Positions 42,582 to 60,276 are shown, numbered from the stretch's first letter. The stretch is DNA of 64,000 bases from an uncultured Gammaproteobacteria bacterium (GCA_963797555.1 CAWCPV010000020.1:1-64000), one strand, 5' to 3'. Notes: generated by a model not told the origin, from the sequence alone. Numbers and translations: made by a program.

Positions 42582-44147
42582 ATGTTCGCTACCGCTCTGA
42601 TCGTATTTCGCGAAACGCTGGAGGCAGCCCTGATCGTCGGTATTGTGATGGCGGCCACGCGGGGCGCCGCGGGTCGGGGCCGCTGGGTCGGTGCCGGCAT
42701 CGTGGCAGGCACGGCCGGTGCGGCCGCCGTTGCTGCCTTCGCAGACGCCATCGCCACAGCCGTCTCGGGTATGGGTCAGGAACTCTTGAATGCTTGTGTG
42801 CTGTTCACCGCGGTGACCATGCTGGGCTGGCACAACGTCTGGATGAAACAGCACGGCCGCGAGCTAGCGGCCCGAATCAGTGGCATCGGGCGCGGCGTGG
42901 TGGAGGGGTCTCGGCCGCTGTATGCCCTCGCGGTCGTCGTGGGGCTTGCGCTCCTCAGGGAGGGATCGGAGGTCGTGCTGTTCCTCTACGGTGTCGTCTC
43001 ATCCCAGCGGGCCGGCACCCTGCCAATGCTCGCGGGCGGTATCATCGGGCTTGGGGGCGGTACCGCGGCGGGGTTTGCGATGTATCGGGGCCTGCTGCGC
43101 ATCCCAGCGCGTCATCTGTTCACGGTGACAGCGTGGATGATCCTCCTGCTCGCGGCGGGCATGGCGGCCCAGGGCGCCCGTTACCTGGTTCAGGCGGGCG
43201 TCCTTCCGCCGCTCGGCACGGCTCTTTGGAACACGTCGGCATTACTGCCCGAGCAAAGCCTGCCGGGACAGATCCTGCATGTATTGGTCGGCTACATGGC
43301 GCGTCCGGACGGCGTCCAAGTGCTGTTCTACACGGTCACATTGGTTCTGATAGGTGGGCTGATGAAGTGGAGCGGCCGGCGGACTGCGCGCCCGGCAGCG
43401 GCGCAGGCCGCCGCGATCGCGGTCTTGGTCTGCGGCGCGCTGACGTTGGGCGCTCCGCCCGAGGCACGGGCGAACTGCAAAGTGTACTCACCGCACGTCG
43501 AGACGGGTGAGCTGGAGTTGGAAGCGCGCGAGTGCCTGCTTCAGGATAGTAACCCCGAGGAAAGCGGTATCCGAACGGATACGTACGAGGTCGGTTACGG
43601 CTTTACCGATTGGTGGTCCTCGACCGCGGTGTTCGAGTACACGAACGAAGGAGAGGAAGGCTACCACCCGGCGGTGAGGGGGTGGGAGAACATTTTCCAG
43701 CTCACCGAGCCAGGCCGGTACTGGATGGACCTGGGCCTGTATCTGGAGTACGAGTGGGCCGTAGCTCATGACGAGTCGGACGGGGTCGAGGCGAAGATCC
43801 TCCTGGAGAAAAGTGTCGGTCGCTGGACGAATACCGCCAACGTCATCTTCGAGCGGCCGGTCGGCGGCGGCGCCGGCAACGACGTGGCGGTCAGCTACGC
43901 TTGGCGGACGCGCTATCGGTGGAGGCCCGAGTTCGAGCCTGCCATCGAGGCCTTTGGAGGGATCGGGAACACCGGCAACTTCGGGTTTAGCGGTCAATCC
44001 CAGACCCTCGGGCCCGTGGTCCTGGGTAAGGTCCGTCTCAACTCCAGGATGACGCTGGGCTATGAGGCGGGGTATCTCTTCGGTCTGACTTCCGGGAGTC
44101 CAGACGGAACCTTCAAATGGCTGCTGGAGCTGGAAGCGCGGATATGA
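42582..44147 (+). CDS. FTR1 iron permease fused to a putative outer-membrane beta-barrel domain
   Basis: Two RExxE motifs (RETLE, REGSE); after a signal-peptide-like segment comes an aromatic beta-strand domain (KVYSPHVETGELELE...LLELEARI). Confidence 0.8.
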   Translation: MFATALIVFRETLEAALIVGIVMAATRGAAGRGRWVGAGIVAGTAGAAAVAAFADAIATAVSGMGQELLNACVLFTAVTMLGWHNVWMKQHGRELAARISGIGRGVVEGSRPLYALAVVVGLALLREGSEVVLFLYGVVSSQRAGTLPMLAGGIIGLGGGTAAGFAMYRGLLRIPARHLFTVTAWMILLLAAGMAAQGARYLVQAGVLPPLGTALWNTSALLPEQSLPGQILHVLVGYMARPDGVQVLFYTVTLVLIGGLMKWSGRRTARPAAAQAAAIAVLVCGALTLGAPPEARANCKVYSPHVETGELELEARECLLQDSNPEESGIRTDTYEVGYGFTDWWSSTAVFEYTNEGEEGYHPAVRGWENIFQLTEPGRYWMDLGLYLEYEWAVAHDESDGVEAKILLEKSVGRWTNTANVIFERPVGGGAGNDVAVSYAWRTRYRWRPEFEPAIEAFGGIGNTGNFGFSGQSQTLGPVVLGKVRLNSRMTLGYEAGYLFGLTSGSPDGTFKWLLELEARI

Positions 44148-44249
44148 GTCCCCCGCAAGGGCTCGCCGAGGAGCGCATCGCCCACCACAGGCTTTTCTCG
44201 CTGCAGCGTGTGGGCGGGTTTGACTTTTGGTGACCGGTTGCCTGCTCGC

Positions 44250-44990
44250 CGGCATCGCAGAATGCTTCCACGGACTTGGCCATGACGCCTTGTGGTCGCG
44301 CCGCAGCGCCTCGTTCAGGAAGGCGGCCCCCTCGTCCGGATCCACGGTCTCGCTGCGCGCCAGAGCGGAAGGTTGGGACTCCGGGAGCGCCCGGAGCCCC
44401 AACGCGCCGGTGAGGTCGCTGCCGTCCAGTTAGAGGGAGTCGAAGAAGTACGCACTGAGCGGCACGGAGCCCCCGCACCGCCGCCGTCTGCTCCAGACGG
44501 CCGCAGTTACGTTGTTCCACCGGAACACCCGGACCGGGGTCCCCCGCCTTGTGCACCTGCATCCGGCCAGGCGATCCGCTTGGCCGAGGACGCTCCTGTC
44601 GCTACCGATTTCCACCAGCAGCATGGCCGTGCCGATGAGAGCGACGCCCGGCAGGGTTTTGAGCCAACAGGCGCCGGCTGGCCAACTGCAGGACCTCGTG
44701 GAGAGCGGCCCCCCTTGGATGAGGGCCTTGACCATGGCACAGGCCGATTGGCGCTGACCATTACCCCCAAACGGATGCTGCCATCGGTGAGCACCTTGTG
44801 CAGCCTCTTCTCCGAGGCAAGCTGCCCGACCAGCTTCTGGCGCTGCCGGGCGATCAGGCGCAACTCGCGCAGTTTGGCCGGGGGGACGAAGGAGCCGTGC
44901 CACAAACCGGCCAGAGCCAGCATGGCCAGCCACTGGGCATCACCGATGTCGGTCTTGCGCCCCGAGAACTATTTGACGTGGCGGGCGTTG
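44250..44990 (-). mobile_element. Degraded IS110-family transposase
   Basis: NARHVK*..GRKTDIGDAQWLA, SFVPPAKLRELRLIARQRQKL, LKTLPGV...MLLVEIG; stops and frameshifts. Confidence 0.75.
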
Positions 44991-45107
44991 ACCTCTCCCC
45001 GCCGTCTCCCACCCCTGAGTTTCTTTCATCCTCTGGGGTGGCGCCGGATGCAATGATCGTTGGGAGGGGAAGAGGGCAGCCTACGGTCGGGGCTGCCCGC
45101 GGGGCGA

Positions 45108-45430
45108 TTACTTCAGGCCCATGCAGTTGGCATAGTACGTCACCGTGGCGGGCCAGTCGGAGAAGATCCCCAGGATTTTCACCTTGCGGGCCAGCACGTC
45201 CAGGGCCTTGTACATGTCGCTGTCCTTTTTGATTGCCTTGCCTTCCGGATCGAACAAGTAGTATAAGCCGGCGTTTGCGGCGCCTTGGCGCAGGTCAGAG
45301 CGCTCGAAGGTCCAGGTGATGATGTCCAGGCCCGCTTTTTTGATGTCCGTTGCGTACTCGGATGGGACCACTTCGCCGGCATCGTTCACCGCGAGCAGCG
45401 CAAACATGGGCGGGGCGAAGACATCGGCAC
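45108..45430 (-). pseudogene. C-terminal fragment of a glycerophosphodiester phosphodiesterase
   Basis: APPMFALL...AGLDIITWTFERS...GIFSDWPATVTYYANC; N-terminus absent. Confidence 0.7.
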
Positions 45431-45555
45431 TGAGCGAATCCGCCCGGCTACGGCGCAGACACAGCACGAATCCCTAGCGGCGTGGGGTGGTCGTCATCCC
45501 TGTTGGCCTCTCAGGCGCATCGGTCGGCTGGCGTCGCTGGCGTTATCGCCGCCGG

Positions 45556-45990
45556 TCAGTGCTGCAGCAACGTCAAGCGAGTTGCCTTCAGCAGGCGCCG
45601 AAAGCCCTTGTCGAAGCTCACGAGATGGCCGTGGTTCGACTCGACGGCGGCCGCGATCCAGGCATCCGGGATGTCATTGCCGGTCAGGCGGTGCCGCTCG
45701 CACAGATCCAGCAAGACCGGCCACTCCCGACCGAGCGGGGGCATATCGACGCCGGGGGACTCCAGCACGACGCGCAGGAACGTCACGGCGGCTTCCACCG
45801 GCGTGGGCTGGACGAAGACACGCGGATGCGTGACCAGGCGCAGGAATCCGGCGGCTACCATCGGCAAGACGGTCAGGGTCCGTCCCTCCGCGCACGCGTC
45901 CAGAGCCGAGTCCAGCCAGGCTCGCGCTGATTCGTGGTGCGGGTGGTCGGCGCGCGAGGCGGCGACCAGCACATTCACGTCGGGGGTCAT
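45556..45990 (-). CDS. vapC: VapC PIN-domain toxin
   Basis: PDVNVLVAA, FLRLVTHPR, DAWIAA, SFDKGF. Confidence 0.88.
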   Translation of the reverse strand: MTPDVNVLVAASRADHPHHESARAWLDSALDACAEGRTLTVLPMVAAGFLRLVTHPRVFVQPTPVEAAVTFLRVVLESPGVDMPPLGREWPVLLDLCERHRLTGNDIPDAWIAAAVESNHGHLVSFDKGFRRLLKATRLTLLQH

Positions 45991-46250
45991 GTCCCCTCGT
46001 CCGCCTCGGTCCAGTCGTTAGTGGCGTCCAGCAGGGCACGGTGGCTGGTGGGGTCCGCAACCGCTGCTGTAAGTCCACCGACTCCTGCGAATACCGGGAG
46101 CGGGGGACGGGCACGTTGGAGTTTAGCCGGCGGCCGCAGCCGTAGCGCGAGCGCTTCCTCGATTAGACGGGTCAGGGTCGTGTGCTCCTGCGCGGCCACG
46201 GCCTTGGCCCGGGTCAGCAAGGCATCGTCGATGTCGAGGGTCGTTCTCAT
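45987..46250 (-). CDS. vapB: VapB-type antitoxin
   Basis: MRTTLDIDDALL...TLTRLIEEAL; overlaps the vapC start. Confidence 0.85.
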   Translation of the reverse strand: MRTTLDIDDALLTRAKAVAAQEHTTLTRLIEEALALRLRPPAKLQRARPPLPVFAGVGGLTAAVADPTSHRALLDATNDWTEADEGT

Positions 46251-47028
46251 GGGTGGAGCACCGATGCAGATTTCTGCATCATCCTATTATCGAGCGACGA
46301 CCCTGTCAATTCGGATCCCTGTTGCAGACAATGCCTGCTTCCGGTCGTTTTCGGACAGAGCGCCTGGACTATAGCCCGCTCCTCGCCCATGGTCAGCCCC
46401 TGGCGGCAGCGCGGCCAGGCCCAGAGTCAGGGCGAGAATGTGAGCGCTGTGGAACCACTCGGGGTCGAAGGCATGCGGCCAGGCGCAGCTCCAGCACCAA
46501 CCGCCCGTCGAAACCGGTGGCATGCAGCGCCACATCGAAAGCCGAACCGGGTGTCCACCAGCTTGCCACACAGCTCGTAGCGCTGCCCGCCGGCCCGCGC
46601 TGCAATGCGGCACAGGTAAACGAAGGCAGGCCAGGGAGGGGAGCCAGGGTGCGTCTGCGCGACCCATGCCCGGCGGTTGCTCAGGGCCTCCTGAGCGAAT
46701 CCCTTGTAGCCGTGGAAGCTGTTAGCGGGCCAGAGTGAGGGCGGCACCCAACAGCTCGGCCTCACCGACCTCGGGTCTGCCTGACCCGCTCCGGGCCGGG
46801 ACCGGAAGCCATTTGCGACCACTCGCTCCAGCGCCAAACGACATGCGGGGTGCCGACGCGAAAGATTCCACGCGCTGATCCTGATCGACCGCAGCCACCG
46901 CGCCGGGCGGGCCTCTATATCTCTCGCGTTCCCGGTCCTCCACCCCGACCCGGGCCGAAAGCTTGCGGCCCCGTCACCGCATATCCCCCGGGTGAGAGAA
47001 TCGAGCCCGGTCACCGGAGGAGCATCCC

Positions 47029-48174
47029 ATGGAAGTGTCTTTTTACCGGCTCACCTGGCACGCCCAGCTCGCGGCTGGCGCCTTGCTGTTCGTGTTGTCG
47101 CTCGCGATCGAGGCCGCCGTGCTTACCGAATACTTGACCAACGCGGTCCTCGCCGCGCCGCTCGCCCTCGGCCTGGAAGTCAGCAAGGCGGTGACCATCG
47201 TGCTCCACCGCTTCCTCACCGGGCAGGACCGGGGCAGCTACCCGGCGTCGGTACGCTCCATCGTTCTCGTTTTTCGAGCGGCCCTGCTGGTGCTGTCCGC
47301 TCTATGCTCGCTGATGTACCTCGCCCACAAGCTCGATCGCCCGCACCTGGAAGCGGTCCGCCAAGCCGACCTGGCGAGTATAGAACACGCCTATACGGCC
47401 GATCGCTCCCGCCTCGAGCGACAGTTCGCGCGCCAAGGGACCGAGACCGACAAGGTGGTCGCCGCCCGTTTCGCACAACTGCGGGAGCAGGCCGCAGACG
47501 GTTACCGGCCCGCCATCCGGGGCCTGCAAGCCCAGCTCACCGTGGAAATGGACAACTCCGTGAAAGGGAACTTCGTCGGCCCTCGCTACCGGACGATCGC
47601 TTCGCGCCTCGAGCAGGAGAAGTCCGCGTACCGGGAGCGCCTGGATGGACTCGCCGAGCGGGAGGCACGGGAGCGCGCCGAGAGCTTGGGCTCGCTCCGC
47701 GACGCGCAGGAGCGGGACCTGTCGCGGCTGCGCAGCGTCTTCGAGGCTCGTGCGGCGCATCTGCGCGGCGAAGATTATGCGGGAGATAGCCGGGTGGAGA
47801 ACCCCATGATCACCGCCTTCACTCGGGTGGTGCATCGGGTCACCGGCCTCGACCTGGACCCCCTGCTGTTCATCTTCCTGTTTTCGGTCTTTATCAGCCT
47901 CCTCATGGAGCTTGGCATCGTGGCGAGCTTCGAGACGCTCACCAGCTCCCACCTGCCGATCCTCTCTGCGGCCCACCGCATGAAGCTCCAGGTCACCAAG
48001 CACCGGATCGAGTCCGAGGGAGACTTGCAGACCGCCCGGATCGACGACGCGGCACAGCGCCAGAGAACGGCAGGATGGGTACGGGACATCGCTCGTTCAG
48101 TCGGCTTCGGCGCGGGCGGCCTCGACCGCAAGCTTGCGGATCCGGCGGAGCCCGGCGGATCTGGTTTCAAATAG
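47029..48174 (+). CDS. Uncharacterised membrane protein (about 3 TM, long coiled coil, 1 TM); DUF4407-like architecture
   Basis: Hydrophobic N-terminal helices, a helical middle with EMDNSVKGNFVGPRYR, and a C-terminal TM; GGAGGAG RBS. Confidence 0.7.
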   Translation: MEVSFYRLTWHAQLAAGALLFVLSLAIEAAVLTEYLTNAVLAAPLALGLEVSKAVTIVLHRFLTGQDRGSYPASVRSIVLVFRAALLVLSALCSLMYLAHKLDRPHLEAVRQADLASIEHAYTADRSRLERQFARQGTETDKVVAARFAQLREQAADGYRPAIRGLQAQLTVEMDNSVKGNFVGPRYRTIASRLEQEKSAYRERLDGLAEREARERAESLGSLRDAQERDLSRLRSVFEARAAHLRGEDYAGDSRVENPMITAFTRVVHRVTGLDLDPLLFIFLFSVFISLLMELGIVASFETLTSSHLPILSAAHRMKLQVTKHRIESEGDLQTARIDDAAQRQRTAGWVRDIARSVGFGAGGLDRKLADPAEPGGSGFK

Positions 48175-48210
48175 ACACGGATCACATCACAACTTGGAGG
48201 GACAGCAGCC

Positions 48211-48756
48211 ATGCCTGAAAACCGCGGGTCGGGAGACTCCCACACCGCCACCTACCACCCGGAGATCCTCCGGGCGCCGGTGGCGGACAACTCGGCGCTG
48301 GTCGACTCGGCGCTCGCCGCGCACCGGCAGAACTTCCTGCTCCGCCTGTTCCCGAACGACCAGGAGCGGGCGGTGCGCGGCCATGAGCTGGACCAGATCA
48401 AGGCCGGCTTCGAGTTCCGCCGCCGTGCCCTGCAGATGGCGGTGGAGACGAAGCTCCAGGCCATGGAGGAGATGTGCAACCACGTCCTGGTCACCGGCAA
48501 GAGCGAGATCCGCCGGCAGCGCCAGGAGTTCTTCGCCGAGCAGCAGCTCAAGCTGCAGACGGCCATGGACCAGCACGCGGAGCGCTTCAACACCCGCCTG
48601 GAGCGGCGTCTGGCGGAGCTTCAGCGTTACCAGAACCCGCAGCTCCGGCAGCGGGAGGAGCAGCGCCTGCTGCGGGCGCTGGATCAGTTCCACGAGATGA
48701 TCGAGCAGCTCTCCCAGGACTTCATGGCCATCATCCATGAAGGCGTCCACCGCTGA
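48211..48756 (+). CDS. Uncharacterised alpha-helical/coiled-coil protein
   Basis: 181 aa, strong host codon bias, GGAGG RBS, 26 bp before cas2. Confidence 0.75.
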   Translation: MPENRGSGDSHTATYHPEILRAPVADNSALVDSALAAHRQNFLLRLFPNDQERAVRGHELDQIKAGFEFRRRALQMAVETKLQAMEEMCNHVLVTGKSEIRRQRQEFFAEQQLKLQTAMDQHAERFNTRLERRLAELQRYQNPQLRQREEQRLLRALDQFHEMIEQLSQDFMAIIHEGVHR

Positions 48757-48782
48757 GGGGCGCGGAGCCCGGAGGACGAAGC

Positions 48783-49067
48783 TTGACCACACAGCCCGCC
48801 ATCATCGCCTACGACATCGCGAGCGACGCCACCCGGCGGCGGGTGCGCCAGGTGGTCCAGGAGTGGCGCCTCGACGGCCAGAAGTCGGTGCACGAGTGCC
48901 TGCTGACGGAGGCCCAGGCGCAGGAGCTGTTCCTGCAGCTCGCCGAGACGTTGTCGGGCACTCGGGACCGGTTGCTGCTCGCCTGGGTGGCGCCTCACCG
49001 GGCGTGCATGGCGCGCGGGAAAGGCCGGATCGGCGGCCCGCCCTTCGGGGCGGCACGGGTGATATGA
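48783..49067 (+). CDS. cas2: CRISPR-associated Cas2 (copy 1)
   Basis: IIAYDIASDATRRRV...QKSVHEC; TTG start with GGAGG RBS. Confidence 0.88.
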   Translation: MTTQPAIIAYDIASDATRRRVRQVVQEWRLDGQKSVHECLLTEAQAQELFLQLAETLSGTRDRLLLAWVAPHRACMARGKGRIGGPPFGAARVI

Positions 49068-49071
49068 GGCG

Positions 49072-49432
49072 ATGGCCAAACGCGGCTGGTATCTGCTCGC
49101 CTACGACATCGCCTGCCCGCGCCGGCTGCAGAGGGTGCAGCGGCTCCTGAAGGGCGAAGGGCTCGCGGCGCAGCTCTCGGTGTTTTTCGTGTTCGGGTCG
49201 CAGGCCGAGGTCTCGGGGCTCCTCGACCGTGTGGCGGAGCGGATCCACGTCCGGGAAGACGATGTCCGCTGCTGGCCGATTCGACCATCCGGGGGCGGTG
49301 TGGTTCCACGGCGAGCCCCCAGTCAAAGGCCCCCTGGCACCGCCGGGCCGCAGACCTCGGCCCGAACAGGCGGAGAGCAAGAAACGGCGCGGCTCGGCGG
49401 TGCTCCGTATCCTGGGGAGGTGGCGGGCTTGA
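49072..49432 (+). CDS. cas2: CRISPR-associated Cas2 (copy 2); read in frame with cas1 in this assembly
   Basis: YLLAYDIACPRRLQRV...QLSVF...EDDVR; a plausible C-terminus (DHPGAVWFHG...) lies in the +1 frame ending at TGA 49432. Confidence 0.8.
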
Positions 49433-50469
49433 CCGGGGAGTTGCTGGTGGTGCTCGACCGTCGGGAAAGCACGGTTCGGCTCGAGGGTCGCGCCTTGCGC
49501 GTCCAGCATGCAGGCGGATGGGAGCGCATCCCCCTGGGGCTGGTGGGCCTGGTGGTGGTCCACGGGAGCCCCTCGGTGTCTTGCGACGTCTGGCGCGCCC
49601 TGGCGGAGCGCGGCGTGCCCGCGGTCATGCTGCCGTCGCGGGGCACCGGCGCGGCCGCCTGGGCCGGTGCCGGGCTGTCCACCAGCATCCAGGTACGGCG
49701 GCGCCAGCACCGGGCGGCCTCGGACCCTCCGCAACGCCTCGCGGTGGCGCGGGAGATTGTGCTGGCCAAGCTGTCTGCCCAGCGAGCCCTCGTACAGGGA
49801 CTGGGTTCCGGCACGATCCCGGTCCTGTTCGACACGGGGGGGACCGCCGCCCTGGTGGCGACGCTGGACAGCCAGTTGGCCGCGGCCCGCACGGCTCCCG
49901 ACCCAACCACCCTCATGGGGGCCGAAGGGGCAGCCGCCTCAGCCTGGTACCAATGGCTCTGCGAACATTTGCCGGGCCGCTGGCGCTTCAGCGGCCGCAA
50001 CCGCCGCCCACCGCGCGACCCGGTCAACGCACTGCTCTCCCTCACCTACACCCTCGCCATGACCGAGGCCCGGTACCAGCTCGAAGCCGCCGGGCTGGAC
50101 CCCGCCTTGGGCTTCCTGCATGGGGTGGTGCCCGGAAGAGACTCCCTGATGCTGGACGTGGTGGAGCCGCTGCGTCCAGGTGTCGACGCTTTCGTGCTGC
50201 GCCTGCTCGAACGGGTGGTCGAGCCGCGGGACTTTCACTACAGCCAGCGGGACGGCTGCCGGCTCAACAAAGCGGCGCGGGGAACGTATTACCAGGCGTG
50301 GGCCGCCTATCGCCTGGAATGGCCGGACCTCGAAGCGCGCGCTGCCGCCGGCAGCGAAGAAGAAGCGCCTGCTTACGCAGGCACGCTCTCCGGTGCCGCC
50401 TGGCGGGTCGTCCAATCCTTGCGGCGTCTCCTGCCCGACTTGGGCGACGAGCCCCAGTCCGATGGGTAA
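49429..50469 (+). CDS. cas1: CRISPR-associated integrase Cas1
   Basis: LMGAEG, FSGRNRRPPRDPVNALLS, GFLHG, LMLDVVEPLRP; TTG start with GGAGG RBS. Confidence 0.93.
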   Translation: MTGELLVVLDRRESTVRLEGRALRVQHAGGWERIPLGLVGLVVVHGSPSVSCDVWRALAERGVPAVMLPSRGTGAAAWAGAGLSTSIQVRRRQHRAASDPPQRLAVAREIVLAKLSAQRALVQGLGSGTIPVLFDTGGTAALVATLDSQLAAARTAPDPTTLMGAEGAAASAWYQWLCEHLPGRWRFSGRNRRPPRDPVNALLSLTYTLAMTEARYQLEAAGLDPALGFLHGVVPGRDSLMLDVVEPLRPGVDAFVLRLLERVVEPRDFHYSQRDGCRLNKAARGTYYQAWAAYRLEWPDLEARAAAGSEEEAPAYAGTLSGAAWRVVQSLRRLLPDLGDEPQSDG

Positions 50470-51296
50470 GCTGCTGGACCGGGCACTGACGCCCGATGCC
50501 GTCAACCGCGCCTGGAAGAGCGTCCGAAACGACCGCGCACCGTGGCATGTCGGGATGAGCAGGACGGAAATGGAACGGAATCTTGCGACCCACCTGCTGC
50601 GCCTGGTCGATGATCTGCGACAGGGCCGGTACCGCCCCGATGCCATGAGGCAATTTACGATCGCCAAGGGAGACGGCCGCCAGCGCGTGCTCTCCGCCCT
50701 CACCCTGCGGGACAAGCTGGCGCAGCGCGCGGTCCTGTCGGTTCTCGAGCCCATCGGCGAACAACTGTTCCACCACGACAGCTTCGGCTACCGGGCCGGG
50801 CGCAACGTCGCCATGGCGCTGGCACGGGTCCGGGAGCGGGTGCACTGCGGTCTTCCCTGGCTGGTGGACGCGGACATTCGGGCGTTCTTCGATAACATCC
50901 CCCACCGCCCGCTGCGCAAGGCGCTGGCGCGTGTCGTCCCGGACCGGGAGGTCCTGCACCTCATCGACCAGTGGCTCGAGGTCGGCACGTACCACACCGG
51001 CATCCTCACCGGCCCCCGGGGGGTCCCCCAGGGGGCTGTCATCTCTCCGTTTCTCTGCAACGTCTACCTGCACCAGCTCGACGGACGGCATGCGCGAAGC
51101 GGCGTACCCTTCGTTCGTTATGCCGACGACTTCCTGCTGTTCGCTCCCGACGAGCGGACGGCCGCCAAGGCCCTGAAGCTCGTCGGCGTATACCTGCGGG
51201 AGTCTCGACCTCGAGCTCCACCCCGAAAAGACCCGGGTAGTGCTCTCCGGACCCCAGGTCAGCTTCCTCGGACAACCGCTGCCTGCGCCGCCGTGA
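50462..51296 (+). CDS. Stand-alone group II intron-like reverse transcriptase (CRISPR-associated); frameshift ~51200
   Basis: IAKGDGRQRVL, DKLAQRA, SFGYR, DADIRAFFDNI, GVPQGAVISP, RYADD; LHPEKT...FLG in the shifted frame; no maturase or endonuclease domain; overlaps the cas1 end. Confidence 0.9.
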
Positions 51297-51316
51297 CATC
51301 GTACGAGCCTAGCTAG

Positions 51317-51663
51317 CCTACCGCCCCCGCGCCATCCTCAAGCGCCGCAGGCGCTCTCTGCCCCCGCGCGCCCCCATCCCTACCCCTGCTCCCCGCGGCA
51401 GATGAAAACGGCCGCTGCGCCCACCACGACCGTGGACAGCGGCCGGGGGTCAGCTACGAAAGGGAGGAGTGACGCAACCCGTGATGGCGAGCAAGCGCCC
51501 ACATATCCCGATCTGCCAAACATCGCCAACATGGTCTACACTACACTTGGTTTCCAACCGAGACCGTACCGACATGCGTGTAGCTAACTCCCTCGAACAG
51601 TTTCCGTGTCGCCGCGGCAACGCCCAACCGCCTGCTGGCCGTGGCTGTCTCGCGGCAGGGGGG
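51317..51663 (+). promoter_or_regulatory. Putative CRISPR leader
   Basis: Non-coding stretch between RT and the first repeat; degenerate repeats are at the opposite end of the array. Confidence 0.6.
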
Positions 51664-53894
51664 GGCAGAACGCAGACCTGATGAAGAAGGGATTGAGACA
51701 AGCCTAAACTTCCGCTTTCACTCCCCACGTCGGCAGAACGCAGACCTGATGAAGAAGGGATTGAGACTTGACAAGAAGAGCTATTGCCGCATTATGCCAG
51801 AGGCAGAACGCAGACCTGATGAAGAAGGGATTGAGACATCGGCTGCCGCGCATATCCAACTTCCCGATCTCGGGCAGAACGCAGACCTGATGAAGAAGGG
51901 ATTGAGACATGGACGCCCTGAACGGCGCCGTCAACTCCACGGGCAGAACGCAGACCTGATGAAGAAGGGATTGAGACCGGAACAGCCCGGGGACGCCCAT
52001 CGGGATCAGGTGGCAGAACGCAGACCTGATGAAGAAGGGATTGAGACCGTAGCGTTGGGTGACATACTGCACGATGTCAGGGGCAGAACGCAGACCTGAT
52101 GAAGAAGGGATTGAGACCCGAGAGCCTGCTCTATCGGACTTACATCCCCCGGCAGAACGCAGACCTGATGAAGAAGGGATTGAGACACTGGGCGCGCATC
52201 CCGGCCTACACGCGGTAATAGGGCAGAACGCAGACCTGATGAAGAAGGGATTGAGACCTCACCTCTTTCGATACTGGTAAGGTCATCGAGGGCAGAACGC
52301 AGACCTGATGAAGAAGGGATTGAGACTTCCGTGATACCCGCAATAGAGCGTCATCGCCAGGCAGAACGCAGACCTGATGAAGAAGGGATTGAGACGCGTA
52401 TAGAACCTACCGAACGAGATGATCTTTCCGGCAGAACGCAGACCTGATGAAGAAGGGATTGAGACATGAGCCGGCGTAGTCAGCTATCTGTAGGGCAGAA
52501 CGCAGACTGATGAGGGATCAGAACGCAGCACCTGATGACGAAGGGAATGCAGACCTGATGAAGAAGGGATTGAGACTTGCCACTGACACTCGCAGGATCG
52601 ACGGGCAGAACGCAGACCTGATGAAGAAGGGATTGAGACGACTTGGAGCGCCGCATATTCCGCCAATGTGAGGGCAGAACGCAGACCTGATGAAGAAGGG
52701 ATTGAGACCGATGCGATCCATCTCCTCAAAGCGCGCCTCGAGGGCAGAACGCAGACCTGATGAAGAAGGGATTGAGACTTCCCGAAGGCGGACGGACCAT
52801 CCTGTGTACGCCGGCAGAACGCAGACCTGATGAAGAAGGGATTGAGACCTCCCGAAAGAGCTACCAGCGCTGTTCGCCTCCGGCAGAACGCAGACCTGAT
52901 GAAGAAGGGATTGAGACAGATACAACCTCGGCGGTGCGTCGATCAGGACTTGGCAGAACGCAGACCTGATGAAGAAGGGATTGAGACCCATACGTGATTG
53001 CCGCTAGTAATAGATCAATGAAGGCAGAACGCAGACCTGATGAAGAAGGGATTGAGACCGCCTAAGGTAGTCCTCTGTGCTCTCCTTTCCCTGGCAGAAC
53101 GCAGACCTGATGAAGAAGGGATTGAGACAACGTCGCGAAAATCGTGAACGCTCCGGTTGGGGGCAGAACGCAGACCTGATGAAGAAGGGATTGAGACTCC
53201 AGTCCTTTGATGTAATCGCATGGTGCTAACAGGCAGAACGCAGACCTGATGAAGAAGGGATTGAGACAATTTGAGCAAGGCAGGGTCAAACCATTATCTT
53301 GCGGCAGAACGCAGACCTGATGAAGAAGGGATTGAGACGCTATTCGAAGTCGCATTTGACCACCTCCTCGAGGGCAGAACGCAGACCTGATGAAGAAGGG
53401 ATTGAGACACGTGGACGCAGAGCGACACAGTCGAATTGCCAGGGCAGAACGCAGACCTGATGAAGAAGGGATTGAGACGCCGTGATTCCAGCTACCGCCG
53501 TCAATTTCTTGTGGCAGAACGCAGACCTGATGAAGAAGGGATTGAGACCACCTGTCCGGCAGGTAACTGCTAAGGCTTATGGGCAGAACGCAGACCTGAT
53601 GAAGAAGGGATTGATACTGGAGAAAGAGCGGCACACCTCACTTCACCAGCGGCAGAACGCAGACCTGATGAAGAAGGGATTGAGACATGTTCCTCCCGCG
53701 TTATCAGTGGATTGGCGTGGCAGAACGCAGACCTGATGAAGAAGGGATTGAGACCTGTAGGGATGTGGTCGTTTGGATAGAGAGCCGTAGGCCGAACGGA
53801 GACCTGATGAACAAGGGATTACGACGGCGACCGGAAGGTCACCGTGGCCATGTCCCTTGGCGGGACGGGGATCTGGTGAAGAAGGAGTTAGGAC
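51664..53894 (+). CRISPR. CRISPR array, 36-bp repeat GGCAGAACGCAGACCTGATGAAGAAGGGATTGAGAC, about 32 repeats and 31 spacers
   Basis: Repeats every ~69-71 bp; spacers mostly 32-35 bp; garbled unit at 52494-52576; variant at 53582; degenerate repeats at 53790 and 53859. Confidence 0.98.
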
Positions 53895-53995
53895 GACATT
53901 TTCGACAGCCGATGCGGTCAGCGCGGCGCTGATGTGCCATGGGGGCGGTGGGTGTTGCGAATATCAACGTCACAACGTGGAAAGGAGAAAGCGCC

Positions 53996-54871
53996 ATGGG
54001 TAAGAGCCGCAAGAAGGCGCGGTCTGGGCCGCCGGCCATCCAGGCCGAGCGTGCCTTCGCCGCTATCAAACAGACATTCGGCTCGAACAAACCGCTGGCC
54101 ATCGGTCTAGCGGCCTTGCTGCTACTGACCTTTGGCTGGTTCGTGAATGCGACTTACGACCTGCCCCTTTTGCTGGATGGAAACACTGCCTTGGGGTTTC
54201 GGCTGCGGGTGGTGGGGGGCCTTTTGGCCTTTCTCCTTGTGTCCGTCTGGCTGGTCTGGATGGCTAGCCGTGCGAACGTGACTGTCCCAGTGATCGTGGT
54301 GCAGACACCCGACCCGCCCAAGGTCGCAGGCCTTATCACGTTTCTGAGCCCGCCCGGCGCCGATAGGGCGCAGATCGAGACCTTTGCGGCCAGCACCGTT
54401 GGCGAAGCAGAGCCACCCGACCCCCGTGCGTCTCTGAAGGGCTCGTGGCGAATGCCCCTTGAGGCCCTGGCCTACCACGCAGAGCGGCTCAAGTACCTGG
54501 TGGTCATCCCCTCCGCCGATGACCCCAGAGACCCGCAGGGCAAACCTGGAACTTGGCGGGACATGGAACTGTTCAAGGCCGTGGTCGCGCGGTATAGCGG
54601 GGGTCGGGTTGCCGCGGAATGCCTACCCGACTGCCACCAGGGTGTGGATTACGAAGATGCCCGCGCCGCAAAGGATGGCGTGGATAGCGCCTATGCGTCG
54701 CTTCTGCAACGCGGACTTAAAACCTGCGATATCCTGGTGGACATCACCGCCGGACAGAAACCCACCACGATTGCCGGCGCCGCAGTGGCGCTCGTGGAAG
54801 ATCGTCAGTTCCAGTACGTCAGCACCCGCGACTACCGCGTAGTGACCTACAACATCACCTATCAGAGCTGA
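53996..54871 (+). CDS. Transmembrane CARF effector (Cam1/Cam2-like)
   Basis: Two N-terminal TM helices and a Rossmann-like domain with GLITFLS and LVDITAGQKPTT (CARF motif II); no nuclease domain. Confidence 0.75.
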   Translation: MGKSRKKARSGPPAIQAERAFAAIKQTFGSNKPLAIGLAALLLLTFGWFVNATYDLPLLLDGNTALGFRLRVVGGLLAFLLVSVWLVWMASRANVTVPVIVVQTPDPPKVAGLITFLSPPGADRAQIETFAASTVGEAEPPDPRASLKGSWRMPLEALAYHAERLKYLVVIPSADDPRDPQGKPGTWRDMELFKAVVARYSGGRVAAECLPDCHQGVDYEDARAAKDGVDSAYASLLQRGLKTCDILVDITAGQKPTTIAGAAVALVEDRQFQYVSTRDYRVVTYNITYQS

Positions 54872-54873
54872 CC

Positions 54874-55197
54874 ATGGGCACCATTTATGTCATCAACTCC
54901 CCCGTCCTCACCGACTACGGGTTCTGGCGCTTCCGTGGCCCATTATCCGTGGACGAGGCCCGCGACATGCTTGCGGGCGGTTTCGTGTCCGCCATCGGCC
55001 ATGAATCGGCGGCCCAGTTCCTGTCCCGACGCCTCGGGGTGACCGTCCCGCACAACCGGGTGCGCGTGAGCATGGCGCCGGGTGACCGAGCGCTGGTGCT
55101 GCGGCTGGGCGCCCGTCTGCCCGAAGGGCGGCAACTGACCGATGAGGACATGGAGCAACTTCCGTTCGAGCTGGGGCTGATGGAGCGGGAGGGATAG
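54874..55197 (+). CDS. crn2: DUF1874 / AcrIII-1-like ring nuclease (Crn2)
   Basis: YVINS...FVSAIGHESAA...NR...GDRALVLRL..RLPEG, the STIV B116/YddF family signature. Confidence 0.85.
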   Translation: MGTIYVINSPVLTDYGFWRFRGPLSVDEARDMLAGGFVSAIGHESAAQFLSRRLGVTVPHNRVRVSMAPGDRALVLRLGARLPEGRQLTDEDMEQLPFELGLMEREG

Positions 55198-55529
55198 CCG
55201 GCCACCTGGCACGGACGGGAGTCCGGGACGTCCGAGTCGGCCCGAGAACGCGGACAGGTGTTACGGTGGTTCCTTGCTTGCTGGAACGTCATCAGAGCAA
55301 ACCGGCCTGGAACGTCTGGCGCCGGGCCCCGTTATCGGGTGACGCGATGAACCTCAGTCCTGCCGTCGGCGCCTACCCCGGGGGGCGAGCCACGCGAACA
55401 GCAGCCGATCCCGGCTCAAGTCGACGGACTCCACCAACTGCAGGAATAGCTCCTCCGCCTCGGGTTCGGTAGGCGGGTACTGCACACCCTGCGCGAGTGG
55501 CGGCTGGATCTGCAGGAATCGGTTCACGA

Positions 55530-55738
55530 GTCCAGATTCCGCGCGAGATATACTGTATGACGGAGCACGCCACCGAGAGCAGCAGCAACGCTACTCGGAA
55601 CGACAGCACCATGGAGGACGGAACCGAGGCAGTCGCCACCGCATGGGTCTTCATGAAGCGGTACACGACGATGGCGAACGCCTTACTCAGCTCCAAGCCG
55701 CCGGAGAGGGCAAGAGCGAGCACCGCGCTATCGAGGAA
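55530..55738 (-). pseudogene. Fragment paralogous to the 47029..48174 membrane protein
   Basis: FLDSAVLALALSGGLELSKAFAIVVYRF...SMVLSFRVALLLLSVACS...YLARNLD aligns with YLTNAVLAAPLALGLEVSKAVTIVLHRF...SIVLVFRAALLVLSALCS..YLAHKLD. Confidence 0.75.
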
Positions 55739-55799
55739 CGGTAATCCGGGGTTCTAGCCCGTGTTACACTGTCTTACGCTATACGGAGCGGAGGATTCC

Positions 55800-56015
55800 A
55801 TGAGCACTCTGACCATCCGCATCGACGACAAGCTCGATGCCGAGCTCGAGCAGCTCGCGAGGATCACACAGCGCACCAAGAGCGATCTCGCGCGCGAGAT
55901 GCTGCGCCGGCAGGTCGCCATCGCTCGATTCCGGGAGCTGCGCAGAAAGGCCATGCCGTTTGCGGAGGCAGCGGGCTACCTGACGGATGAGGACGTGTTC
56001 CGCGACATCTCGTGA
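55800..56015 (+). CDS. Ribbon-helix-helix antitoxin
   Basis: MSTLTIRIDDKLDAELEQLA...TKSDLAREML; GGAGG RBS. Confidence 0.82.
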   Translation: MSTLTIRIDDKLDAELEQLARITQRTKSDLAREMLRRQVAIARFRELRRKAMPFAEAAGYLTDEDVFRDIS

Positions 56016-56416
56016 GGGTATTTTTGGACACCAACGTGCTCGCAAGTGCATTGACCGCCCGCGGCCTGTGCGCCGATGTCCTGCAGACGGTCCTTGCTGA
56101 CCACCAGCTTCTGTTCTCCGCCCAGGTTCTCGCCGAGCTCGCCGATGTCTTGCCACGCAAGTTCGGCCTCCCGTCCGCCGTGGTAGATGAATTCCTCACT
56201 CTTCTTACGGACGAAGGAACGCTGTCCGCCGCACCCGGCCCATGTCCGATCCTGCCTGATAACCCAGCCGATGCCGTCATCGTCGCCAGCGCGCTGGCGG
56301 GCGGGGCGGAAGTCTTCGTCACCGGGGACAAGGAACTGTTGGATCTCGGGAAGGCCGAAGGCGTGCCCATGCTGTCGCCGCGGCAGTTCTGGGAGCGGTT
56401 GGCCGCGGGCACGTGA
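56012..56416 (+). CDS. PIN-domain toxin
   Basis: VFLDTNVLAS...D..IVASA...FVTGDKELL; GTGA overlap with the antitoxin. Confidence 0.85.
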   Translation: MRVFLDTNVLASALTARGLCADVLQTVLADHQLLFSAQVLAELADVLPRKFGLPSAVVDEFLTLLTDEGTLSAAPGPCPILPDNPADAVIVASALAGGAEVFVTGDKELLDLGKAEGVPMLSPRQFWERLAAGT

Positions 56417-56658
56417 GTGTCCCCAGTCCGCGCAACCGCGGCGGACTGCTTGGTCCAGCACGGCCGCGCCTGGGCCGCTGAAACGCGGATACGCAGGAGA
56501 GCCTAACCGAAAGAAGGAGGAATCACTGGGCTGGCAAATTTGCCGAGGGGTACGTTGAATAGCGACCGATGACGGCTCTCGTCAATGCCCGCCGTTCAGG
56601 GCAAAGAACACTTGGTGAGGCCAGGACGGCCCACGGAGGAGGCCGACGGGAGGACCCG

Positions 56659-57768
56659 TTACAGCTTTTTGTCGAGTCGGTCGAGAACAAATATCTCGCC
56701 CTCAAAGTGGCCGAACAGCCGCTTCGCGTCTTGGTCGGCCCAGGCATCGCATTCGTGGGTGCTGTCATCCACCGGATTCTTGAGGATCTTGAAATCGAGG
56801 CTGCTCAAAGCGATCTGCTGATTCGATTCCAGGTACCGAGCCAGTTGATCTACACGCTCATTCACCAAGCGCAGCCGCTCCCCCGCGAGGGTGCGGATGC
56901 TGCGTTCAAAGCCGGAGCCGAAGCGTAGCCGGCGCGAGGGTGAGTCCCAAAGGCGTTCCTCGTAGATCCGTGGGCAGGCTTCCCGCCAGACGATCTCACC
57001 CCAGGCTGAAAGAGTAGCCTGTCCCCCGTCGACGAACAGCAGGGTATCCGGGATTCCAGCCACTTCCGCCGCCGCCACCGCAAGCTGTGCCCCCATCCGG
57101 CGGAAGGCGGCAAGATGGGCCCGCACGGTCGCCTCTGCATCGAGCTTGAGCGGGAGACGCGGCAAGCGCAGCAGCTCGTGACCCGATTCGAAGACATATA
57201 CGCTCTCGTCCGCATAAAGCATCGCGAGGGCCTGCATGAACCCTTGTACGCTCTTGAACCCACCGGTGAGGTTGAAGACTACACGGTAGCCTTGCCGCGA
57301 ATACTTCCGAAGGGTTCCGGCACACCAGGTGGCAAGTTCGGTCATGGCAGCCTGGAAACCAGGCAGCTCCTCTGTCTGCAAGTCCTTGACCCGGTAAACT
57401 TCTGCTCCCAAGCCGGCCTGCTGCAGTATGTCTGCGATTATCCGTGCGCCATTCTCTCCTAACCAGGTATCTGTACAGAGCAGCACATGGTGATCGGGCG
57501 CACGGGCAGGGAACCTTCCGTGATACCAGCGCAGCAGGCCATTCAGCTCGGCGCTCAGGGCCATCAATATCGCGGGTTCCCTCCGATCGACAAGTTCCTC
57601 GCGCCGTTTCTGGATGTGCGGCTCGATTAACTCTCGTACCTCGGTTGGGATCTGTTCCGCGGAAACTGCATTTGCATACTTGGTAAGTAGCTTTCGCAAC
57701 TCATCCTGAACCTGATTGGTAAACAGGCTGGTCCCGCAGGTGGAAACGATGAGGTGTCGCTGCGCCAT
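56659..57768 (-). CDS. cami1: CARF(APE2256)-wHTH-RelE effector, Cami1-like mRNA interferase
   Basis: STCGTSL, SAELN, FNLTGGFKS, YVFE CARF motifs; RelE-like C-terminus (LDFKILK...THECDAWAD..AKRLFGHFE). Confidence 0.82.
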   Translation of the reverse strand: MAQRHLIVSTCGTSLFTNQVQDELRKLLTKYANAVSAEQIPTEVRELIEPHIQKRREELVDRREPAILMALSAELNGLLRWYHGRFPARAPDHHVLLCTDTWLGENGARIIADILQQAGLGAEVYRVKDLQTEELPGFQAAMTELATWCAGTLRKYSRQGYRVVFNLTGGFKSVQGFMQALAMLYADESVYVFESGHELLRLPRLPLKLDAEATVRAHLAAFRRMGAQLAVAAAEVAGIPDTLLFVDGGQATLSAWGEIVWREACPRIYEERLWDSPSRRLRFGSGFERSIRTLAGERLRLVNERVDQLARYLESNQQIALSSLDFKILKNPVDDSTHECDAWADQDAKRLFGHFEGEIFVLDRLDKKL

Positions 57769-57819
57769 ATTCCTCTCCGAACTGGTCAAAAGCATCGCGG
57801 ACCGGAGTGCGAGCTGATG

Positions 57820-58153: not shown

Positions 58154-60265
58154 CTAACCGCCTTTGGGATCGATCTTGATGATTTTCCAGTTGGGTCCGC
58201 CCCGGTGCTCCACGGTGATGTCCGCCCTGAGCCTGCCCTGCTGCAAACGCTTAAGTGCAGCGGGGTCCAGGGAAGCTAGGAGCGAATCAGCCTCAGCGCC
58301 CATCACAAAGGCACGTTCCTTTTCTTTAGAGGCGGAAATCTCCCTCTTTCCTTTGTTGAAGACCAGAGGCACGCCTAGCCAACGGTCAGTGCCCCCGGGT
58401 GATGAAGTTTTCAGACCTGAAGCACCACGCTGAGGATATGCTGCCAACACGAGTCGGTCCTTCTTCGCTTTCACGAAGTCGTTGCGACCATCCTCCTGAG
58501 CAAGAACCATGTGTCGCAGATCGCCCCGGAATGCCCGCGCACTCGCTGCATCAGCCATTCCTCGAAGGGCCCTCATTTGAGGGCTCTTTGCCCACCCCTG
58601 CACCTGTTTTTCCATAAAGCTCACGAATTTTTCCATACAGTTGCTGAGGCTGAGAGGCGTAGTAATTGGATCATTACTGACGACGTGGCTCGACTCGATC
58701 TGAACGCTCGCTTGCCCATATCCATATGGTTTGCCCATTCCGATTGAATGATGCATCGCTTCGTCACCACCCCAGGTAAGCGCCCAAATTAATGCTCCTA
58801 ATTCTTCGGGCTTAAGATTATGAAACACAACTCTGCCGGAGAATTGAGCACCCCCGTCGATCGGAAATAGGTTTACCGAAACTGCATCGGTTCCTTCTGA
58901 GGAGTGCGTCAATGCAGGTCGCACAGGATAGCGCTTCCAGCCCCGTATCTCGGAATCTTTGTCCATATAAGTCTTATAGGTGTCCCGAGCGAGCGTCGTA
59001 CCGTCCACGGTCGGTTGTGCGACATAATTCGGGTAATAGGTCGGCTTCGGCGAATTCAGCACTACCCTTCGTGCATCCAATTCCAGGACTCCCGCCCTCT
59101 CAGTGCAGGGTTCGAACCATACCCGTCCCTTTAGTGGCGTAAGGCCATCTACCACATCGGTCATACCGAACATTAGGCAAGCGAAATCATCGGGACGCTT
59201 CTCGGCGTGGGATGAAGATGTGTGTTTGATGGTCTCTACGATCGAGTGCGGATATGCAAGCTTGAACATAAGCGCCAAGCCTAGAGAAGCGATCGTCCCC
59301 CCGAGGTCGGTCAAGAAGAATATTGGTATGCGGGCACGGCTTTTCCAGTAGGCCCACTCGTCGGTTTCCGCGTGGATGTGCATAAAGTCCCGCATCACCG
59401 CCTCAGGCACTTCAACCTGTCGGGTCGTGGGCACATCGTAAAACACGAACTCCAGATGCTTCTTGCCCGCCGCAGGCGGGACGCGGGCCGCAGGTTGGCC
59501 GGTGAAAACGAGCATACCCTCGACTGCACCTCTCCCCACGTCGGCCGCCTTACTGTATACCAGCATCTTGCCGCCGCTGTGCGGGTGGGCTTCCTGTAGG
59601 CCAGGAGTGAACCGGATGTCGAGGGAACGGGGCCGCCATCGACTATATTTTTCACGGGCACAGACACGGGGCACTGCACGCCACCAGCGATCCCCGGAGA
59701 GTACAGCGAGTTCATCGTGATCGATACGGGAGTAAGCACAAGGTGTGACAAACCACCGATCACCTTGGAAGCTCAGCCAGCCTGCCTGCGAAAGAGGTCG
59801 GTACATGTTCTCGCCGACTTTCTCGGTCATGAATCTCCCATAGAAGCCACGCGCCGGATTGGTCAGGTCGCGCACCGAGTAGCGTGCATCATCCACCATC
59901 CCCATCCTTGAGAAAGTGATAATCTCCAGCACGTTCCGGACCATGCCCTTTAGGCTCGATCCGGGGATGGCGTAGCCGTCCGGCGTCTGGAAAAACCGCA
60001 CCTCGCCGGGTGCCTGTTGGCTCGCCTTGGTCTGCTGTCCACCGACCAGGATCGGGGTGTGCGCGGTAAGGGTGAAGGCGATCTCGCCGCTCAAGCCGTC
60101 CTTGAACGGGACGTCGTGAGAAACGAGGTGTGCCCAATCGGGGACTACAACCTGCTCCGAAAGAGGGACGAAGTTGTAAGGGGAGTTAATCGCCTGCATC
60201 GCTGGCTCTTGGGGCCGATTAGCGCCCGGTGGGCGAGGGTTGTTCCGGTGGTGCTGTCTGGGCAT
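58154..60265 (-). CDS. Type III-D Cas7 with large insertion (TIGR03986-like RAMP)
   Basis: SPYNFVPL, SHD...LSGEI, IPGSSLKGMVR, LNSPKPTY, RGWKRY, IGMGKPYGYG. Confidence 0.88.
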   Translation of the reverse strand: MPRQHHRNNPRPPGANRPQEPAMQAINSPYNFVPLSEQVVVPDWAHLVSHDVPFKDGLSGEIAFTLTAHTPILVGGQQTKASQQAPGEVRFFQTPDGYAIPGSSLKGMVRNVLEIITFSRMGMVDDARYSVRDLTNPARGFYGRFMTEKVGENMYRPLSQAGWLSFQGDRWFVTPCAYSRIDHDELAVLSGDRWWRAVPRVCAREKYSRWRPRSLDIRFTPGLQEAHPHSGGKMLVYSKAADVGRGAVEGMLVFTGQPAARVPPAAGKKHLEFVFYDVPTTRQVEVPEAVMRDFMHIHAETDEWAYWKSRARIPIFFLTDLGGTIASLGLALMFKLAYPHSIVETIKHTSSSHAEKRPDDFACLMFGMTDVVDGLTPLKGRVWFEPCTERAGVLELDARRVVLNSPKPTYYPNYVAQPTVDGTTLARDTYKTYMDKDSEIRGWKRYPVRPALTHSSEGTDAVSVNLFPIDGGAQFSGRVVFHNLKPEELGALIWALTWGGDEAMHHSIGMGKPYGYGQASVQIESSHVVSNDPITTPLSLSNCMEKFVSFMEKQVQGWAKSPQMRALRGMADAASARAFRGDLRHMVLAQEDGRNDFVKAKKDRLVLAAYPQRGASGLKTSSPGGTDRWLGVPLVFNKGKREISASKEKERAFVMGAEADSLLASLDPAALKRLQQGRLRADITVEHRGGPNWKIIKIDPKGG

Positions 60266-60276
60266 GACCGTTCTCC

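Follow-up and report, generated by a model that had tools for sequence, protein, structure and literature searches.

Characterised reverse transcriptase (RT)-Cas1 systems take many of their spacers from host transcripts, and how such systems pick the RNAs that they record is an unsettled question. The locus described here poses it in a concrete form: what do a predicted membrane protein and a predicted helical protein, neither of them matching an established family, do at the head of an RT-containing adaptation operon? The locus lies in a stretch of 64,000 nucleotides of DNA from an uncultured Gammaproteobacteria bacterium (GCA_963797555.1 CAWCPV010000020.1:1-64000), the whole of which is called the window below. 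The two genes, open reading frames (ORFs) ORF1 and ORF2, precede a stand-alone cas2, a Cas2-Cas1 fusion and a stand-alone RT. A functional link of both to adaptation appears highly likely, and the two probably act as helpers, unstudied so far, in capturing spacers from RNA. The complete explanation, in which ORF1 and ORF2 constitute a membrane-anchored accessory pair of the RT adaptation module feeding a type III-D array, is one that we favour tentatively.

Organization of the adaptation operon

Translation of the sequence yields five + strand ORFs in tight series: ORF1 (47029-48174), encoding a predicted inner-membrane protein of 381 aa; ORF2 (48211-48756), encoding a predicted soluble, all-helical protein of 181 aa; the stand-alone cas2 (48783-49067, 94 aa); the Cas2-Cas1 fusion (49072-50469, 465 aa); and the stand-alone RT (50462-51316, 284 aa). 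ORF1 and ORF2 are separated by 36 nt, ORF2 and cas2 by 26 nt, and cas2 and Cas2-Cas1 by 4 nt, while the RT starts at 50462, 8 nt inside the preceding ORF with its stop at 50469. Gene order, strand and spacing had been described in the same way in an earlier sequence-only reading of the locus. Its count of six genes, with cas2, cas2 and cas1 listed separately, fits the family, but the window has five ORFs, because the second cas2 and cas1 form one 465-aa ORF here; the end of the operon, placed at 51296, is corrected to the end of the RT ORF at 51316. A leader (51317-51663, + strand; 347 bp from the RT gene to the first repeat) and a CRISPR array (51664-53825, + strand) with 31 copies of the 36-nt repeat GGCAGAACGCAGACCTGATGAAGAAGGGATTGAGAC follow the RT, as that reading had it.

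The two leading ORFs represent genuine conserved gene families, beyond chance, as follows from their codon bias together with the many homologues of both. The operon region has a GC content of 62-70%, and all five ORFs show a coding-type bias, with a GC fraction of 0.82-0.93 at third codon positions (GC3) against 0.36-0.55 at second positions (GC2); GC3 is 0.83 for ORF1 and 0.93 for ORF2. An exhaustive search with 50% clustering returned 175 representatives homologous to ORF1 at E<=1e-3, 55 of them at E<=1e-30, and ORF2 has 80 homologous clusters at E<=1e-3 (90% clustering), with 45-70% identity. The operon-like packing is a point in favour of a functional link between this pair and the adaptation genes, and the genes are presumably co-transcribed. 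A terminator scan of the gene strand upstream of the RT gene found one weak hairpin (49158-49177, within cas2-cas1), and terminator-like sites in the region number 4, little above the shuffle mean of 2.2. A promoter scan of the + strand 5' of ORF1 found no sigma-70-like site, a result that is uninformative in a genome of 65% GC.

The free Cas2 (PF09827, 9.8e-9; also matched by PADLOC Cas2 models) is one of two in the module. The 465-aa ORF carries a second Cas2 domain at residues 6-71 (PF09827, 2.4e-9), which a low-complexity linker joins to a Cas1 domain (residues 127-411; PF01867, 5.1e-67; TIGR00287, 2.2e-50). Two Cas2 domains per module occur throughout the clade (window 48783-50469; loci L006, L012, L022, L077, L080 and L081), which suggests a heterodimeric Cas2 core. 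The second cas2 either forms a single uninterrupted ORF with cas1, as in the window and in L064, or lies just 5' of cas1 as a separate gene in a different frame, as in many relatives; L080 and L081 carry a tandem Cas2-Cas2 ORF.

The RT, adjacent to cas1 and unfused, is of the group-II-intron-like type with a YADD motif (PF00078, 3.5e-33). It aligns with positions 2-239 only of the 353 in TIGR04416 (5.7e-65) and stays under the equivalog cut-off of that model because the thumb is absent, and it fits the PADLOC CRISPR RT model PDLC01136 end to end (2.7e-82). Its PDB matches cover fingers and palm only (residues 3-243 of 428 in the GsI-IIC RT; Cas6-RT-Cas1, 7kft). By these alignments it consists of the fingers and palm of a group II RT, with no thumb/X domain. 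The same is described for the RT of Cas6-RT-Cas1 and, in the text available of that work, appears as a known state of CRISPR RTs (PMC8102632).

Two conserved families without recognised domains

Neither ORF1 nor ORF2 reaches the threshold of any family in Pfam, NCBIfam, PADLOC or PHROGs, in line with the view that the leading genes belong to no known Cas family. Homologues of ORF1 are nearly all 350-390 aa long and align over the full length. The AlphaFold2 model of the window protein is confident (predicted local distance difference test, pLDDT, 91.4). Three transmembrane (TM) helices (residues 2-36, 39-65 and 73-102) lead into an antiparallel coiled-coil hairpin of 2 x 65 residues (107-174 and 185-247), ~100 Angstrom long, the small tip of which (173-187) is conserved (E173, N176, G180, G184 and Y187). 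After the hairpin come a short helix and an 80-residue helix (278-358); TM4 makes up the first third of the latter, which extends past TM4 for ~60 residues. Conserved residues buried in the membrane are S24, E28, E50, K53, S90, S286, S290 and E294; within the TM helices, E294 is conserved at 100% and E50 and K53 at 97%. This architecture and its key residues are retained down to ~20% identity. A remote relative, P0225 (659 aa), has a 357-residue N-terminal extension.

Averaged over 38 homologues, the loop charges come to +0.84 for the N-terminus, -0.39 for loop 1 and +1.58 for loop 2. With these charges and the positive-inside rule, both termini would be cytoplasmic, and the coiled-coil hairpin of this N-in/C-in protein is probably periplasmic. 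In at least seven loci (L009, L012, L014, L015, L018, L019 and L024) ORF1 is short and lacks the hairpin, being one ORF of ~217-283 aa that matches profile positions ~14-118 and ~280-380 (cut off by the contig start in L015); these short forms make up a subclade. The ORF1 of G353 resembles this short form, and that of L063 is likewise short, the lengths being ~190-280 aa when L063, L027 and L029 are counted in and L015 is left aside; L027 and L029 have at the place of ORF1 a short-type multi-TM ORF, too divergent for the family profile, with an ELG/IEL-like TM4. Since the short form does without it, the hairpin is optional, and the core of ORF1 consists of the four-TM bundle and the C-terminal helix.

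The ORF2 sequence contains no hydrophobic segment, and its AlphaFold2 model (pLDDT 67) consists of three long helices after a disordered, variable N-terminus. Alignment A1 (20 sequences, with homologues down to 42% identity) has 29 invariant columns, concentrated in EEMCNHVLVTGKSEIRRQRQEFFA, at the turn that joins the first long helix to the second; the invariant patch comprises E86, E87, C89, N90 and H91, then G96 and K97, and then R101, R102, R104 and Q105. Sub-threshold matches alone were returned, to DUF5344 (16.4 bits, cut-off 27) and to ZorA coiled-coil segments (2.6e-4 and 5.8e-3). A role as an RT thumb acting in trans was considered for ORF2 and dropped, as CRISPR RTs are generally without a thumb and the ORF2 profile found no match among PDB sequences (best E 0.87). 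A search of longer proteins for fused forms of ORF2 found none, a result of little weight. Complex prediction for ORF1 with ORF2 gave an interface score (ipSAE) of 0.00 in both runs, made without controls and counting neither way.

The buried charges of ORF1 bring a rival explanation into play, in which the two genes are a membrane effector or a toxin-antitoxin-like addiction pair riding with the adaptation genes, with no role in acquisition. Channel or pore activity would reside in ORF1 and be restrained by ORF2, and the pair would either stabilise the cas operon in the genome or arrest the infected cell. Three acidic and one basic conserved residues within a four-TM bundle are reminiscent of ion conductors, toxin-antitoxin modules safeguarding cas genes are reported in general terms in the text of one survey (PMC10910872), and membrane pores such as Csx28 are described as CRISPR accessories (PMC12669027). 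ORF1, however, is large and structured, unlike small hydrophobic toxins, and so many invariant columns as ORF2 has are unusual in an antitoxin. ORF2 is moreover among the best-conserved proteins of the cassette (mean identity 0.49, vs 0.47-0.48 for Cas1), the pair is never found away from the cas2 side in the loci examined, and PADLOC yields no meaningful match. On balance this explanation is unlikely, although it would accommodate the dispensability of the pair described below.

A fold search with Foldseek, which the sequence-only reading had proposed, was run on both proteins against the PDB and gave no significant match, with nothing at E<=1e-3 (best E 0.018 with TM-scores of ~0.1 for ORF1; best E 0.54 for ORF2). 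A wide VIA-align search with ORF1 returned only generic helical hairpins with Z ~9-10, below the meaningful level for long helices; they included T7 ejection proteins, EmrA/HlyD adaptors, IpaB, PspA and a chemoreceptor, and in this list, dominated by coiled-coil hairpins, the TM part was barely probed. The ESM Atlas gave unnamed clusters only, and two leads from it, DUF4407 (0.80) and a mostly viral cluster (0.92), were not substantiated. Plasmid and phage collections contain no match to ORF1 or ORF2, and viral contigs none to the ORF2 alignment or to two remote ORF1 relatives used as queries.

Co-inheritance with cas2, cas1 and RT

The neighbourhood of the pair was compared in 37 related loci, comprising 35 metagenome or genome contigs with ORF2 relatives (L001 and L005-L038) and two loci from the same class (G019 and G353), with matches scored by tblastn, phmmer and profiles from alignments A1 and A2. 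Downstream of ORF2, cas2 is present in 31 of the 32 loci with >=250 bp of sequence there, the single exception (L037) having only an ORF2 fragment, and the ORF2-cas2 gap measured from match to match has a median of 21 nt (<=120 nt in 29/33). Cas2b/Cas1 comes next in all 19 loci with >=1200 bp downstream and RT next in all 12 with >=2600 bp; L015, with 2299 bp, has no RT within 670 bp after cas1. The array begins a few hundred bp past the RT in all eight relatives with enough sequence. On the other side, 20 of the 22 loci with >=1000 bp of upstream sequence have an ORF1-profile match immediately upstream of ORF2, L027 and L029 being the others. Homologues are thus not mostly unlinked from CRISPR or RT loci, the outcome that would have spoken against the sequence-only reading, but lie nearly always beside cas2-cas2-cas1-RT and an array. 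Among 400 genomes of the class, ORF2 occurs in three, the window's genome included, and every time in this cassette.

The gene order is kept across RT divergence to ~44-50% identity. Pairwise identity of ORF2 tracks that of Cas1 and of RT equally (r 0.79 for each, over 91 non-independent pairs), and the corresponding value for Cas2 and Cas1 is about the same (r 0.78, 120 pairs). Two decayed copies point the same way. Past the array and csx16, the window holds on the strand opposite to the operon a relic of a second module copy (55354-55741, - strand), in which ORF1 residues 34-96 (48% identity) abut pieces of cas2, one of which is inverted, while ORF2 and everything else are deleted. In a decayed cassette of another genome (L062, G248:C367), ORF1 residues 3-310 run directly into RT residues 72-246, and upstream lies part of a membrane CARF gene. 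As both relics join ORF1 to remnants of cas2 or RT, the block moves and decays as one unit.

The upstream neighbours of ORF1 suggest another assignment, to cyclic-oligoadenylate (cOA) signalling, in which ORF1 and ORF2 would be partners or regulators of the membrane CARF protein and Csx16. In the window, these two genes (membrane CARF, with TM and CARF parts, 53939-54871, + strand, PADLOC CARF_TM 2.3e-36; Csx16, STIV B116-like, 54874-55197, + strand, PF08960 2.5e-25 and PADLOC Csx16 1.4e-40) lie 3' of the array. In many relatives they are directly upstream of ORF1, and the window locus therefore seems rearranged. One or both occupy this position in L006, L014, L019, L022, L025, L062, L063 and L064, and ORF1 and the CARF protein are both membrane proteins. 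The linkage is nevertheless looser than that to cas2: the Csx16-ORF1 gap ranges from ~220 bp (L064) to >2 kb against the median of ~21 nt between ORF2 and cas2, no TM-CARF or Csx16 was detected within 8 kb upstream in L012 and L024, neither relic joins ORF1 to CARF, and in the window CARF-Csx16 stand across the array while ORF1-ORF2 adjoin cas2. A signalling arm is accordingly an improbable account of the pair. Being kept with cas2 where CARF and Csx16 are elsewhere or undetected, the pair is tied to adaptation and not to interference or signalling.

Modules without the pair

RT loci were also gathered without regard to ORF2. A short RT of this clade, commoner than ORF2, was matched in 15 of the 400 class genomes at E<=1e-40, some of the matches being ordinary group II RTs, and five loci were taken from the 14 other genomes with an RT match. 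They provide the first of several points that weigh against a role of the pair in acquisition. Two sister modules (L077/G268 and L078/G251; 53-55% RT identity) keep the cas2-cas2-cas1-RT order, yet neither ORF1 nor ORF2 is detected in them at a cut-off as loose as E<=1, and unrelated genes or an array lie upstream, and the G268 and G251 genomes have no ORF2 elsewhere. L080 and L081 show another order, with the RT beside tandem Cas2-Cas2 and Cas1, and L079 has the RT alone. On the RT tree (21 rows) 5 changes are required to explain where the pair occurs, the starred branches forcing at least 2, and L077, without the pair, groups with the ORF2-bearing L064 (support 90/94). The pair is dispensable and was lost or gained repeatedly; since sister cas2-cas2-cas1-RT modules do without both genes, ORF1 and ORF2 are accessory and not core. 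The earlier proposal of new accessory factors holds in so far as the genes are accessory and linked to adaptation, and is to be qualified by these sister modules and by a possible listing of the families in published surveys (see below).

Further points on the same side concern kinship, structure and mechanism. Close kinship is common among the 37 loci, with several pairs >90% alike on the tree, and the synteny counts therefore overstate the number of independent observations. The hairpin, absent from the short form, cannot be essential to the shared function of ORF1. Co-transcription, protein contacts and an effect on acquisition are all inferred, and a link to signalling may exist, given the frequent position of CARF and Csx16 just 5' of ORF1.

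Inflated synteny counts would also fit ORF1 and ORF2 being functionless passengers kept by linkage, or ORF2 being no real gene, and a look for sequencing runs over 46900-51700 turned up no RNA run, only DNA runs with small shares. Against this stand the invariance of 29 ORF2 residues among homologues as distant as 42% identity, the persistence of ORF1 architecture and key residues at ~20%, the coding-type GC3 of both ORFs and the preservation of gene order at RT identities down to ~44-50%, and such a passenger status is extremely improbable.

A possible role at the inner membrane

According to the tentatively favoured explanation, the membrane-anchored pair would serve a module composed of a stand-alone Cas2, a Cas2-Cas1 and a stand-alone thumb-less RT beside a type III-D array. 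ORF1 would be a four-helix inner-membrane unit with buried Glu/Lys and a cytoplasmic C-terminal helix, and ORF2 its cytoplasmic three-helix partner, presenting the invariant Cys/Asn/His and Lys/Arg patch. With ORF1 contacting ORF2 and ORF2 contacting the Cas proteins, the unit may place or gate RT-dependent spacer acquisition at the inner membrane and thereby affect its outcome. As foreign nucleic acid enters there, acquisition could, on this proposal, be biased to invaders over host RNA. This particular function, membrane localisation or gating of RT-dependent acquisition, is a possibility that we put forward with some reserve.

The buried Glu/Lys and the probably periplasmic hairpin may also allow a sensing or ion-conducting role. 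It is conceivable, if rather unlikely, that ORF1-ORF2, with a hairpin spanning the periplasm and with buried charges, act as an envelope sentinel, which would sense phage genome entry or depolarisation and switch on or recruit the RT-Cas2-Cas1 integrase, the signal passing via the cytoplasmic helix of ORF1 and ORF2. The depolarisation could come from the membrane CARF effector of the locus itself. The uptake of RNA spacers would thereby coincide with infection in time and place, a built-in solution to the choice between self and non-self.

If the explanation with a membrane-anchored accessory pair is true, acquisition may be localised or gated at the membrane in one clade of RT adaptation modules, and the pair is a concrete lead on how RT-Cas1 systems select the RNAs to record. 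Two sizeable families, the 175 representatives of ORF1 and the 80 clusters of ORF2, gain a genomic context, and both proteins become candidate parts for RT-Cas1-based RNA-recording tools.

The surrounding type III-D locus

The repeats of the array follow each other at a ~70-bp period, with degenerate copies at the RT-distal end. At 52430-52604 the array is irregular: a 111-bp spacing comes first, then a repeat that is degenerate in its 5' part, then a 63-bp spacing. Rfam has no family in 44000-56500, leader included. Further along, on the - strand, lie CARF-RelE (56659-57795), a type III-D signalling gene, and the interference genes, namely two Cas7_IIId genes (58154-60346 and 60765-62225) and Cas5_IIId/Csx10 (62222-63748); Cas10, also of type III-D, is found just past the window end (L039:344-1948). 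With array and type III effector genes side by side, the gene content identifies the locus as an RT-linked type III system, as the sequence-only reading had proposed, and assigns it to subtype III-D.

A VapC (PIN) and VapB-like antitoxin pair (45556-46250, - strand) is divergent from the operon, with a 780-bp gap before ORF1 and two promoter-like sites for the pair at 46281-46396. Past the window end, a gene for a CARF5 protein (1.3e-43; L039:2218-3288, - strand) stands beside cas10, and a BrxHI/SngC-like helicase gene (4.9e-50; L039:7726-9954, - strand) beside that of CARF5. Judged by these annotations, the CRISPR locus is situated within a defence-rich stretch.

Comparison with known systems

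Membrane proteins near CRISPR genes have been noted in two surveys. Unnamed ones linked to type III loci appear in Shmakov et al. 2018 (10.1101/270033, Fig. 3C), whose text proposes that proteins of this kind serve as membrane anchors for the CRISPR machinery, and transmembrane proteins associated with adaptation modules in Altae-Tran et al. 2023 (PMC10910872, Fig. 6B, S14). Like ORF1, these membrane proteins are encoded next to type III or adaptation genes and have no soluble domain that can be recognised. The text of both surveys, on which the comparison is based, gives them no function, structure or ORF2-like partner, and ORF1 and ORF2 may be among the proteins listed. A literature search found no paper naming the ORF1 or ORF2 families, which the figures or supplements of the same two surveys may list. 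Csx18, C3a216 and PrimPol are, like ORF1 and ORF2, small proteins beside type III cas1/cas2 with function unassigned in the text available of Shah et al. 2018 (PMC6546367); unlike these accessories, ORF1 and ORF2 have no Cas-accessory match in PADLOC-DB, which has a model for C3a193, a cluster named by Shah et al., and ORF1 is a membrane protein.

Csx28, CorA and membrane CARF (Cam1-like) proteins are membrane proteins of CRISPR loci as well, and a membrane CARF gene is part of the present locus. As described in the text available, they act after interference, as pore, channel or effectors of cOA or S-adenosylmethionine-AMP (SAM-AMP) signalling (PMC12669027), whereas ORF1-ORF2 are tied to adaptation genes and carry neither a CARF nor a sensor domain.

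DUF4407 (PF14362), a language-model neighbour with the score of 0.80 given above, has an outline like that of ORF1, with TM helices and a central coiled coil. It is matched by 3 of 38 ORF1-family members, always sub-threshold (best 3.4e-6), and P0216 reaches 17.5 bits (cut-off 31.3) over the coiled coil only; similar sub-threshold coiled-coil matches of the DUF4407 model occur in 13 of 151 genomes, none over the cut-off. Assignment of ORF1 to DUF4407 was rejected, since the window protein has no match and those of the family are sub-threshold and confined to the coiled coil. No paper joining DUF4407 with CRISPR, RT, Cas1 and Cas2 was found in the literature search.

In Zorya, a coiled-coil membrane protein is coupled to an antiphage response in the cytoplasm. 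ZorAB offers an analogy of working mode only, having, like ORF1, an inner-membrane protein with buried charges and a long coiled coil. Fold and sequence searches, in which the TM part was barely probed, matched ORF1 to none of the membrane parts of MotA, ExbB and ZorA, and the weak PADLOC match of ORF2 to a ZorA tail segment (2.6e-4) falls in a coiled-coil segment, where it probably reflects composition.

RT-linked type III adaptation modules are themselves already known, as the text available of an earlier study describes (PMC5541045), and they are the closest relatives of the present system. Marinomonas RT-Cas1/Cas2, Vibrio vulnificus RT-Cas1 and Thiomicrospira Cas6-RT-Cas1-Cas2 have a like group-II-type RT without thumb/X, as described for Cas6-RT-Cas1, and, as here, Cas1 and Cas2 beside a type III locus and an array. 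The present module differs from them in that its RT is a separate protein of 284 aa and not fused to Cas1, in having Cas2 twice, as a free protein and again fused or adjacent to Cas1, and in the two extra conserved genes that head the operon.

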